From positions 4,320,001-4,384,000 of the forward strand of contig OZ251518.1 in NCBI GenBank assembly GCA_965242965.1: a stretch of 64,000 bases of DNA, in the 5' to 3' direction. The translations under genes and the position numbers were made by a program. Below, piece after piece: positions 27,103 to 61,824 of the stretch (positions are counted from its first letter, which is position 1; the number at the start of each line of letters is the position of its first letter). Below the pieces are notes generated by a model that was not told the DNA's origin, searched no databases, and saw only the letters and a program-made list of their open reading frames with translations. The stretch comes from Candidatus Poribacteria bacterium (GTDB lineage Bacteria > Poribacteria > WGA-4E > WGA-3G).

Positions 27103-27693
27103 GAGGGTGTTTCATAAATCCGTTGGCGCGCCATCCCGGTCTCGCTGCGAGCGATGTCCCCGTAGGAGAGACCTCCTGGTCTCGATTGTTCCCGTAGCGC
27201 GGGGGCCTGTCCCCCGCGTTGGCCAGCGTCACGATGCCATCTTAGGTCCTTTAGGACCTACATGTCTATAGAAAAACGTGCAGGTCCCACGGCAAGGTCC
27301 GTTAGGACCTTAATAAAACCCGCGCGGCCCTGGCAAAAACTATTAAGGACCTAAAGGACCTTAGGCTTCTTCGCGTTCGCGCGTGCTATAGACATTAAGG
27401 TCCTACGGACCTAAGAGACGTTTTTCCGTAGCGCGGGTGCTGGCGAGGGACAGGCCCTCGCCCTACGGTGAAAGGGAGGCTTTCCTCCTACCGTAGCGCG
27501 GGGGCCTGTCCCCCGCGATCGTTGGATTGCGCGAGTTCCATCGTCACGATGTGTGTTTCCCCTGTCTGTAGTTTGTGATCGCCTGATCACAAACGGGTCA
27601 GGATCGGGCGATCCTGACCTACAGTCGGGGAGCGCACGCTCAATAGCGCGGGGGCCCGTCACCGCGACGGTGGGCGATTTATGAAACACCCTC
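27103..27693. mobile_element. TIR-bounded non-autonomous element E2
   Basis: GAGGGTGTTTCATAAATC...GATTTATGAAACACCCTC; flanks AGCTTAGG / AGTTTAGG (8 bp, 1 mismatch). Confidence 0.85.
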
Positions 27694-27840
27694 AGTTTAG
27701 GCACAGATCGCGGGGGACAGGCCCCCGCGCTACGTGATAACGGGCAGATTGCGAGGGACAGGCCCCCGCGCTACGGGTCAACATGCCAATCGCGGGGGAT
27801 AGGCACTCGCGCTATGTGATAACGCGCAATAGAAAAAAAT

Positions 27841-27952
27841 TTGACACATCCCCCAAAATGTGTTAAAATATCTTCTAATTATCACTTTCCGGTCTGTTTT
27901 ACCTAAAAAAAGCGATTTTAGGTTGACATATCCGTTTGAAATGTGATATAAT
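27841..27952 (+). promoter_or_regulatory. Two tandem sigma70 promoters upstream of the rpsF operon
   Basis: TTGACA(27841)-17-TAAAAT and TTGACA(27923)-18-TATAAT, both with TG extension. Confidence 0.75.
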
Positions 27953-27977
27953 TGTGTTACTAAAGTTAAAATCATCT

Positions 27978-28134
27978 GGGCGGGGCATCAGTCCAGTGTG
28001 AGAGTGGGTGTTAGACGCGGGTAACCGTGCAACTCACGCGTGCAGTCGGTTGCACACATCGCAGAATTCCACACGAAGCAACGGGATACCGACAAAATGA
28101 ATCCCCACGCTTCAGCGTGTAGGGAGTATGTCAA
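27978..28134 (+). ncRNA. Orphan IS200/IS605 (TnpB) right-end, omegaRNA-like sequence
   Basis: GCGGGGCATC..GAGTGGGTGTTAGAC..ACTCAC, terminal hairpin GAATCCCCACGC-TTCA-GCGTG..GGGAG and end TATGTCAA; recalled pattern of tnpB 3' ends; no tnpB/tnpA ORF. Confidence 0.6.
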
Positions 28135-28177
28135 GTTAATGTTTTCCGCGCGAAACGCGGCGGACATCATAATCAAT

Positions 28178-28241
28178 CTCTGCTCCCGGTGATAGCCGGT
28201 ATGCTGTGCTTTACCGCGGGGCCATTAGTCCGAAGAGAGGC
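28178..28241 (+). promoter_or_regulatory. Putative S6:S18 ribosomal-protein leader
   Basis: CTCTGCTCCCGGT...ACCGCGGGGC...AGAGAGG pairing that sequesters the rpsF RBS; position matches the known leader. Confidence 0.5.
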
Positions 28242-28248
28242 AATCAAT

Positions 28249-28563
28249 TTGAAATCATACGAACTCCTGCTTATCATCACGCCCGACCGCGATGAAAGCG
28301 AAGCGGAGGCTCTGTCAGCGAATGTGCAGGGCATCATAGAGAACGGCGGGACGCTCCTCAAGGTAGATGCTTGGGGCAAAAAGCGGCTCGCTTATCCGAT
28401 TCAGAAACGCACCGAAGGCTACTACGTGCTTTACATTTTTGAGAGCGCGCCCAGCTTTATTGCGGAACTTAATCAATCGCTGCGAGTCATCGAAGCGATT
28501 ATGCGGCACATGATCGTCCTTTATGAGGGCGACGCTGAGGAACTGAAGAGTGCCGCCGAATAG
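28249..28563 (+). CDS. rpsF: 30S ribosomal protein S6 (TTG start)
   Basis: YELLLII.P, WGKKRLAYPIQK..EGYY, IMRHMIV. Confidence 0.95.
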   Translation: MKSYELLLIITPDRDESEAEALSANVQGIIENGGTLLKVDAWGKKRLAYPIQKRTEGYYVLYIFESAPSFIAELNQSLRVIEAIMRHMIVLYEGDAEELKSAAE

Positions 28564-28685
28564 GCGAGATCGGGTGGTGATGAAGGCTGAAAATATAACA
28601 GCACGACTCAAACGAGCATCATCACTAAACAACGCGGACGAGATAGGTTCTGTTAGGTTCTGTCTCGTCACGCAGAGGAGAAATC

Positions 28686-29138
28686 ATGGCTAGCTACAAC
28701 CGGGTCATTCTGATGGGTAATCTCACCCGCGACCCAGAACTGAAATATCTCCCGAGTGGCACGTCTGTCGCGAATTTTGGCATCGCAATGAATGATGTCT
28801 ACACGGACCGGCAGACAGGCGAAAAGAAGGAGAATCCCTGTTTCGTTGATGTCGCCGCTTGGGGCAGACAAGCCGAAGTGGTGAACGAGTACCTCAGTAA
28901 AGGGAGCCCCATTTTTCTTGAGGGGAGCCTCAAATTTGACTCTTGGGAGGCTGATGATGGAACAAAGCGGAGCAAACTCTCCGTTACCGCGTTCCGCATT
29001 CAGTTAATCGGTGGGCGGCGCGATGGAGACGAAGGCGGCGGTTACACCGAAGCCGCGCCCGCGGCCGCACCGACAGCGCAGGCTCCCGCGCCACCACAGG
29101 GTGCTCCGTCATCGACAGAGGACGACATCCCGTTCTAA
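28686..29138 (+). CDS. ssb: Single-stranded DNA-binding protein
   Basis: [16 protein letters not shown]-terminal DDIPF. Confidence 0.97.
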
Positions 29139-61526: not shown

Positions 61527-61824
61527 GAGGGTGTTTCATAACTCCGTTTCGGTATTTATCCGCCTTGGGGAGCGGGCGAATACCGAAAGGCATCGGACCC
61601 ATCTCTGTAGTTCGGGTTCGCCTGCACCCGAACGGGTCAGGATCAGGCGATCCTGACCTACAGGGATAATGCAGTCTGACAGCAGAACGCATGGCGAGGG
61701 GAACCCGCTCGCCTGCGCGTGGGGAAACCTGCGCGGGCCCTCGCCCTAGGTGAATGGGCGGCGTTTTTTTCACCGTAGCGCGGGGCCTGTCCCCGCGACG
61801 TTGAGCGATTTATGAAACACTCTC
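61527..61824. mobile_element. TIR-bounded non-autonomous element E6
   Basis: GAGGGTGTTTCATAA...TTATGAAACACtCTC with perfect 9-bp duplication AATTAGTAT (61518-61526, 61825-61833). Confidence 0.92.

Follow-up and report, generated by a model that had tools for sequence, protein, structure and literature searches.

A 165-nt insertion in the 5' untranslated region (UTR) of rpsF, the gene for ribosomal protein S6, in a 64,000-nt stretch of a Candidatus Poribacteria genome (C1:4320001-4384000, hereafter the window) is almost certainly the omegaRNA scaffold and right end of an IS200/IS605-type palindrome-associated transposable element (PATE). Judging from the promoters ahead of it, the segment is very probably transcribed together with rpsF. 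It is probably a passive remnant that the host tolerates and for which it has no function, although this neutrality is something that we infer. A preliminary description of this DNA, made from the letters alone, had seen here a promoter-driven TnpB guide-RNA-like locus kept without its nuclease, and had offered as a fallback that it might be just an insertion-sequence scar. That fallback has become the best reading in a refined form, namely a PATE that has lost its left end and has kept the whole omegaRNA scaffold. The sequence features that had been named are all present: GCGGGGCATC at 27980-27989, GAGTGGGT at 28002-28009 with the complementary ACTCAC at 28032-28037, the terminal hairpin, and the end GAGTATGTCAA at 28124-28134. 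The window was also correctly said to hold neither tnpA nor tnpB: of the 7 PF07282 (TnpB zinc-ribbon) and 2 PF01797 (Y1 transposase) matches found genome-wide, not one lies within it.

The insertion is delimited by empty sites in close relatives. In two genomes of the same genus, G001 and G002, both promoters and the leader are as in the window, the segment is missing, and ...GTTAA|GT... runs uninterrupted with nothing duplicated. The promoters are therefore native, and the 165 nt of the segment were inserted after TTAA without producing a duplication. The G002 empty site reads ...AAAGTTAA|GTGAATG, or in longer form ...TATAATTGTGTTACCAAAGTTAA|GTGAATGTTCC..., and the occupied site of the window reads ...TATAATTGTGTTACTAAAGTTAA|[27970-28134]|GTTAATGTTTTCC.... 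The comparison of rpsF leaders among relatives, suggested in the preliminary description, has thus yielded the empty sites sought. Two sequencing runs, each from a different study, also hold contigs with a joint that skips 165 nt (27968-28132), next to others that span the occupied junctions; the assembly itself may derive from one of these two samples. A run that was guessed to be RNA (X1) covers the locus only from 28171 onwards, with one contig, and carries no information on expression. The short side of the joint is 28 nt with 85% likeness, and the joint may stem from a related species.

Within the genome, 27971-28134 is one of four copies of a repeat, the three further copies being 86-92% identical to it (Table 1). 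These three extend about 290 nt further to the left, giving a unit of roughly 460 nt that starts right after TTAA with ATCATCTTTGATGTCAAATCCCC... and continues into a left-end hairpin resembling the left ends upstream of T3124, T3670 and T1003, three tnpB genes elsewhere in the genome. In the window copy, about 8 nt of left tip are joined to the scaffold region and right end. This copy lacks both the left-end hairpin and the internal region, so that it is a remnant and not a complete member of the family. Read by eye, TTAA lies directly 5' of all six gene-less copies examined, that is, three of three full copies here, two of two full copies in G001 and the window copy. At the other side, GAGTATGTCAA is unchanged in all 20 sequences of alignment A1. 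Of the segment first proposed (27978-28134), the right end at 28134 was exact, whereas the left end has to be moved: repeat copies, empty sites and the covariance model described below place the start of the unit at 27970/27971.

Table 1. Coordinates of the insertion, its parts, its surroundings and related loci (window positions unless prefixed by C1 or by an L handle)
Feature	Position	Strand	Remarks
Promoter P1, native to the rpsF operon	27841..27869	+	TTGACA-17-TAAAAT, 11/12 consensus matches, TG ahead of -10
Promoter P2, native to the rpsF operon	27923..27952	+	TTGACA-18-TATAAT, 12/12 consensus matches, TG ahead of -10
TTAA target motif (candidate transposon-adjacent motif, TAM)	27966..27969	+	Directly 5' of the insertion
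Remnant of gene-less IS200/IS605-family element (PATE)	27970..28134	+	165 nt; repeat copies, empty sites, model R1
ATCATCT, proposed deletion microhomology	27971..27977	+	About 290 nt probably lost there
Stem 1, CTGGGC/GTCCAG, loop GGGGCATCA	27976..27996	+	6/6 pairs changed on both sides; 97.9% of cells paired
Candidate pseudoknot, 5' strand GGCATC	27984..27989	+	In the stem 1 loop; complements G-ATGTC (28126-28132) immediately 5' of the guide position
Stem 2, GTGGG/CTCAC	28004..28037	+	Encloses stem 3; 5/5 pairs changed on both sides; 96.7% of cells paired
Stem 3, CGCGG-GTAA-CCGTG	28016..28029	+	4/4 pairs changed on both sides; 96.9% of cells paired
Short hairpin TGCA-GTCGGT-TGCA, variable middle	28041..28054	+	Predicted from MAFFT alignments A2 and A4, compensatory changes; long-scaffold subfamily only
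Subterminal right-end hairpin TCCCCACGC / TTCA / GCGTG-TA-GGGA	28102..28125	+	Double changes in 3/8 pairs
Right-end tail GTATGTCAA	28126..28134	+	Element stops after TCAA; similarity among all copies lost directly beyond
Flank in TnpB-guide position, GTTAATGTTTTCCGCGCGAA	28135..28154	+	Also the start of the native rpsF leader
Native rpsF 5' leader	28135..28248	+	Kept in 5 relatives; includes conserved AATCTCTGCTCC...GTCCGAAGAGAGG part
rpsF (ribosomal protein S6), TTG start	28249..28563	+	104-aa translation; 74-93% identical S6 genes in 5/5 relatives
Repeat copy c607	C1:607382-607546		92% identity to window segment
Repeat copy c3705	C1:3705001-3705189		91% identity; 24-nt palindromic insertion in hairpin loop
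Repeat copy c5303	C1:5303024-5303188		86% identity to window segment
Full copy of element	L002 1501-1945	-
Full copy of element	L003 1452-1925	-
Full copy of element	L004 1212-1658	+
T1003, long TnpB frame			468 aa; C1:1004561-1003155
T3670, long TnpB frame			430 aa
T3124, long TnpB frame			408 aa
T5283, long TnpB frame			370 aa
T973, long TnpB frame	C1:972093-973688		531 aa

The full copies carry about 230 nt of cargo of their own between the left end and the scaffold, with a long hairpin. A TGgTATAAT extended -10-like site is visible by eye in this cargo; the promoter scan does not list it, and its -35 has 3/6 matches. No counterpart of the cargo (about positions 107-360 of a full copy) was found in the intact tnpB element of G001:C50 or upstream of the tnpB genes of this genome, and a full copy matches nothing in Rfam at E up to 1. 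A tblastn search of the four copies with the five long TnpB proteins gave no TnpB remnant below E 0.08, and no open reading frame is detectable in them. The copies are gene-less IS200/IS605 derivatives, i.e., PATEs.

The relationship to tnpB is seen at the 3' end of that gene. The last ~35 nt of the segment (28102-28134) are 79-91% identical to sequence at or just after the stop codon of T1003, T3670 and T3124, and in G001:C50 an intact tnpB, the protein of which shares 62-65% identity with that of T1003, is overlapped at its 3' end by a homologous stretch of 137-144 nt with 74% identity. The BLASTN comparison that had been put forward as a check has therefore led to tnpB 3' regions. In a multiple alignment, the start of the segment directly follows the codons for ...NAAINIL in the last RuvC motif. 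Among 20 loci retrieved from relatives, 9 carry the terminal hairpin at a tnpB homologue's 3' end, and 15 of the 17 right ends listed have ...GGGAGTATGTCAA with covarying hairpins, the other two ending in ...TGTCAG and ...GTATCAA. Full-length matches to the 164 nt are confined to this genome and G001; a match of any kind occurs in 10 of 61 genomes, this one included.

A covariance model, R1, was built from 11 tnpB-linked 3' ends with the gene-less copies excluded. Its match in the window, at 27970-28134, takes in the entire model (positions 1-140 of 140) and scores 79.1 bits with E 6.3e-20; the next one there, at 61607-61727 (+) with 11.3 bits and E 0.2, is probably due to chance. Across the genome, R1 finds nine places. 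Three are tnpB 3' ends (T1003 with 113 bits, T3670 with 107 and T3124 with 30), four are the copies of the repeat (44-79 bits) and two are orphans. The orphans, at C1:2463219-2463387 (-) and C1:1546007-1546080 (+), score 33 and 31 bits, have no PF07282 match nearby and are possibly more orphan scaffolds. The outcome of the covariance-model check is thus positive, and R1 together with the similarity to tnpB 3' ends identifies the segment as the right end and omegaRNA region of an IS200/IS605-family element whose nuclease is not encoded in cis.

The probability that the likeness to IS605 ends is fortuitous, and that the segment is an ordinary structured leader or a REP-like (repetitive extragenic palindromic) repeat unrelated to TnpB, is practically nil. 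Such an explanation could draw on Rfam, which gives nothing at gathering score in the whole window and, at E up to 10 between 27300 and 28800, returns chance microRNA-type matches to palindromes and weak rpsF and ssb ones, with none in 27841-28248. It could also draw on the single-sequence fold, which is not unusually stable, and on the REP-like palindromes just upstream. It is refuted by the full-length match of a model made from tnpB 3' ends only, by the 74% identity with an intact tnpB's 3' end in the sister species and by the precise boundaries of the insertion. The resemblance, in a four-copy repeat that a tnpB-3'-end model matches at E 6e-20, is far beyond chance.

The short form of the window copy may be explained by a deletion between short repeats. 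Copy c607 has two ATCATCT heptamers, one immediately behind TTAA at its left tip and one immediately ahead of the GGCGGGG with which the shared scaffold part begins, and the window junction reads TTAA-A-ATCATCT-GGGCGGGG. Deletion between the heptamers of a full element inserted after TTAA gives exactly this junction and leaves the flank untouched. In the proposed scenario, an element of ~460 nt would have inserted after TTAA at about position +11 of the rpsF-operon transcript, and about 290 nt between the two ATCATCT repeats would then have been deleted, with loss of the left-end hairpin and of the internal promoter-like stretch. The remainder would comprise the part homologous to tnpB 3' ends and the right end, hence a complete omegaRNA scaffold. 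The native rpsF promoters would read through it, and the scaffold and the flank in guide position would become the first roughly 180 nt of the operon mRNA. Without its left-end hairpin the window copy is no longer excisable by TnpA. No other short copy was found elsewhere in the genome. An origin of the short form through the use of an internal site by TnpA was considered and rejected, since stem 1 is unlike the left-end hairpin and the ATCATCT microhomology is simpler.

The scaffold folds into five helices with a candidate pseudoknot. This structure was scored on 29 model-aligned sequences, 26 of them distinct (alignment A5): 97.0% of cells are paired, compared with 75.5 +/- 1.1 in shuffles (0/500) and 34-46% in slid controls, and 18 of 29 pairs have changed on both sides in this set. 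In plain MAFFT alignments, compensatory pairs number 10/22, 13/33 and 6/32. The candidate pseudoknot has six complementary positions whose pairs are 93.5-98.9% kept; its changes are one-sided only (G-U to A-U three times, A-U to G-U twice and C-G to U-G twice), with zero double compensation.

The two near-consensus sigma70 promoters of the preliminary description are real enough by the scan, which finds five promoter-like sites in 27300-28800 compared with 1.3 +/- 1.2 in shuffles. That they form part of an omegaRNA locus is not borne out: they are the native promoters of rpsF and are present in sister species with the empty site. A sequence nearly identical to P1 lies 5' of rpsF in G001 and G002, both without the insert, P2 is kept in G001, G002, G004, G005 and G007, and a regular expression matched a P2-like promoter in 53 of 60 further Poribacteria rpsF upstream regions. 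From the end of the -10 to the start codon there are 117-175 nt in 49 of these 53 loci as against 296 nt in the window. Transcription from P2 is predicted to start near 27959, and the insert would then begin at about +12.

Leaders of rpsF are a known type that is bound by the S6:S18 complex. The present locus resembles them in its position in the rpsF 5' UTR and in the conserved part, which lies downstream of the insert and was left untouched; a AATCTCTGC motif occurs 58-89 nt 5' of the start codon in 42 of 60 Poribacteria rpsF loci. The 165-nt segment differs, and is not part of the leader motif, because it was inserted upstream of the conserved part and is absent from relatives. That the segment has been domesticated as a part of the rpsF leader, or acts as a regulatory guide of the TldR type, as the preliminary description had considered, is accordingly highly improbable. 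Such an RNA would have been kept for regulating the ribosomal-protein operon or for taking a nuclease-dead TnpB to a promoter. The operon in whose 5' UTR the segment sits, with its fold intact, is indeed essential and autoregulated. The segment is missing, however, from the five relatives whose rpsF leaders were read, and R1 finds it at 0 of 60 further Poribacteria loci (E up to 1), a set that overlaps with the five; the empty sites of the two same-genus genomes come close to refuting domestication. No TTAA-flanked match to the guide flank exists in the genome at up to 1 mismatch in 12 nt, and none of the five long TnpB frames clearly lacks its catalytic residues, T3124 and T973 being ambiguous. 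The rpsF leaders of 3 of the 60 other loci carry, by eye, an unrelated inverted-repeat element, which indicates that this leader tolerates insertions.

Compatible-looking TnpB proteins are encoded elsewhere in the genome, as the preliminary description had supposed. The closest of them is T1003, whose product contains OrfB_IS605 and Cas12f1-like TNB domains; its match to structures of ISDra2 TnpB has E 2e-28. By sequence alignment, T1003, T3670 and T5283 have D, E and D at the RuvC positions, and T3124 has a D in the column of the RuvC E. Loading of a TldR-like protein, another of the earlier suggestions, finds no candidate, there being no clear nuclease-dead TnpB among the five long frames in this alignment. 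T973 (L011) has a long N-terminal extension and, in the alignment, no zinc-ribbon cysteines and an ambiguous RuvC glutamate; it may be a derived relative of TnpB, possibly an inactive one. One of the two PF01797 matches is a 79-aa piece beside T3124 that is broken by two TGA stops. The other covers residues 231-341 of an atypical 368-aa protein (C1:3146083-3149418, L015) which, with its C-terminal Y1_Tnp domain, could be a REP-associated transposase. No intact TnpA of ordinary size was seen in the assembly, which is 94.7% complete.

The flank in guide position has its homologue in the stretch that directly follows TTAA at the empty sites of G001 and G002. In the genome, an exact 16-mer match to it exists at its own locus alone. 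One further 12-mer matches exactly, at C1:1823953, where AAAAGC stands before it. When up to 3 mismatches in 16 nt are allowed, the lone match preceded by TTAA uses all 3, guide positions 1 and 2 being among them. The proposed search for a TAM-adjacent target has therefore produced, in the genome, no second target flanked by TTAA, and for the guides of all four copies and of T1003 no convincing trans target was found there. The natural target of the window guide would be the empty rpsF site itself. A repeat of roughly 35 copies, TAGGAC-CTTAATGTTTTC, resembles the window guide but was rejected as a target: it has a mismatch at position 1 and is not flanked by TTAA in register, and its likeness was put down to chance or to another repeat family. 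The flank of c5303 (AATAGTTTGCAACGTT) recurs with one mismatch after other ...GTCAA ends, at C1:2450723 (-) and C1:1095876 (+); this may reflect a repeated target struck several times, or related elements.

The alternative that bears most directly on the reading as a passive remnant is that the segment provides an orphan guide RNA, transcribed from the rpsF promoters and bound and trimmed in trans by the TnpB of T1003 or T3670. The complex would cut TTAA-GTTAATGTTTTCCGCG, the empty allele of the rpsF leader, and would thereby favor the occupied allele when empty ones recombine in; binding and trimming could sever the leader from the rpsF mRNA. Several observations weigh against a passive remnant, some of them also in favor of this alternative. 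The scaffold is complete, the window copy keeps all 31 A1-invariant columns, and none of its pairs is disrupted in an eight-sequence alignment of gene-less copies, as would be expected too of a guide RNA still in use. In those eight copies, which come from two species, compensatory changes occur and hardly any pair is broken, which suggests that the scaffold was selected in the family after coding capacity was lost. Other difficulties for our reading are that the predicted read-through rests on promoter consensus and conservation, that no full-length copy was seen at the rpsF site and the deletion is itself a reconstruction, and that alignment A5, having been fitted to the model, is biased towards the model structure. 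Moreover, the single-sequence fold of 27971-28154 (-55.9 kcal/mol, z -0.03 relative to shuffles) has no added stability.

The orphan guide can also appeal to the intact D, E, D residues of T1003, T3670 and T5283 and the match of T1003 to ISDra2 TnpB, to the occurrence of the empty-site form in the same samples as the occupied form, and to the position of the scaffold ~12 nt after the predicted transcript start, which would require little 5' trimming. PATE omegaRNAs would in any case need TnpB in trans, according to the account of these elements in PMC10055086. We nevertheless regard the orphan guide as unlikely. Beyond the last ~35 nt, plain BLAST sees no similarity between the segment and the scaffold region of T1003 itself, and R1 gives the window 79 bits against 113 for T1003 and 107 for T3670, which makes cross-use uncertain. 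The two tnpB-bearing elements examined by eye sit after TTAT rather than the TTAA of the gene-less copies. The window copy cannot excise, so the re-cutting of donor joints, the usual task of such a guide, never arises. Furthermore, the G001 and G002 empty sites each have 3/16 mismatches to the guide, and the empty-site joint of the sequencing runs may, as said, come from another species. More doubtful still is the further idea that a guide captured by a host promoter is made constitutively and loads T1003 or T3670 against the empty allele in the same sponge-associated samples, forming an immobile "allele-drive." If this were true, binding and trimming of the leader by TnpB would couple the level of the nuclease to the fate of the ribosomal-protein mRNA.

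As a passive remnant, the segment can be compared with three known systems. The treatment of PATEs by Meers et al. (2023; PMC10055086) deals with PATE-like elements of Geobacillus stearothermophilus and states that PATEs often encode omegaRNAs for which TnpB would have to come in trans. Set beside that account, the family described here is alike in having no protein gene, in left and right hairpins like those of tnpB elements of the same genome, in insertion after a short conserved motif without duplication, and in a right-end scaffold that would need TnpB from elsewhere. The window copy differs in that the left-end hairpin and about 290 nt are lost, leaving a fixed remnant that cannot be mobilized, and in probably being read from native ribosomal-protein promoters; the full copies differ by their ~230 nt of cargo with a -10-like site. 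The element family is thus of the PATE-with-omegaRNA kind already known.

In the ISDra2 system, the sections on the omegaRNA in Nakagawa et al. (2023; PMC10097598) have the scaffold overlapping the region of the TnpB gene that encodes the disordered C-terminal tail, and the guide is taken from the flank adjoining the right end, as also stated in the corresponding part of PMC10055086. Against that description, the present scaffold is alike in lying over the tnpB 3' tail and the right end, in having the flank in the position of the guide and in having several stems. The ISDra2 pseudoknot pairs -2..-6 with -102..-106 inside stem 1 (-116..-111 with -91..-86). The candidate pseudoknot here, 28126-28132 with 27984-27989 inside stem 1 (27976-27996), would have the same topology, as judged by complementarity and one-sided changes only. 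The ISDra2 scaffold differs in its length of 116 nt compared with about 159 nt here, the comparison being one of topology and not of RNA sequence; its left-flank motif is TTGAT instead of TTAA/TTAT, and here no nuclease gene lies in cis. TldR guide RNAs, as portrayed in the relevant portions of PMC10705468 and 10.64898/2026.09.22.753285, are similar as TnpB-type guides off transposition duty in a promoter-proximal host context. The present case differs in having no clearly dead TnpB and no TAM-flanked promoter target, and in not being conserved among relatives.

A full-text literature search confined to the articles themselves found no description of a guide-RNA remnant in a ribosomal-protein leader. 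Particular to the rpsF locus are an immobilized copy, the retention of exactly the scaffold, and a start ~12 nt after the predicted start from a consensus ribosomal-protein promoter. The locus is a well-documented case of persisting IS605-family debris, inserted precisely after TTAA within an essential operon's 5' UTR, immobilized by the loss of its left end and left with an intact scaffold at about +12 of a consensus promoter. Should remnants of this sort serve TnpB in trans, guides would have an overlooked source in orphan scaffolds behind host promoters, and such scaffolds would make a plausible beginning for the domestication of RNA-guided regulators; otherwise the segment is simply a tolerated scar. 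It is also an example of a TnpB guide-RNA module that was recognized from raw sequence with no nuclease nearby, a recognition that the covariance-model check bore out. The element family and the model may aid the annotation of Poribacteria genomes, where such repeats otherwise look like unexplained structured leaders.

Some minor observations concern the other copies and the surroundings of rpsF. The insertion in c3705 is 24 nt long and palindromic (..GGCACATGTGCC..) and lies in the loop of the right-end hairpin (L033 1477-1500 = C1:3705026-3705049). Copy c607 lies directly after a 12/12 TTGACA-18-TATAAT promoter (L002 1947-1976, -) and before a ribosome-binding site and a GTG-started gene with a signal-peptide-like start, and c5303 splits the -10 of a TTGACT-17-TAA|AAT promoter (L004 1187-1215, +). 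A TTAA target in a GC-rich genome would favor promoters as insertion sites. The genes downstream of the three full copies match no Pfam family above cut-off. At 27400-27820, just 5' of the rpsF promoters, the window has a cluster of GC-rich REP-like palindromes (units like GCGGGGGACAGGCCCCCGCGCTACG), with spurious microRNA-type Rfam matches and very high contig depth in sequencing runs. The S6 translation also retrieves 65 rpsF loci from public genomes. The unrelated element in the rpsF leaders of L067, L054 and L085 has inverted ends like GGACTTACGCATT...AATGCGTAAGT and occupies two different places of the leader, lying inside the conserved leader hairpin in L054 and L085; a repeat of roughly 35 copies in the present genome, TAGGACCTTAATGTTTTC, may be related to it.

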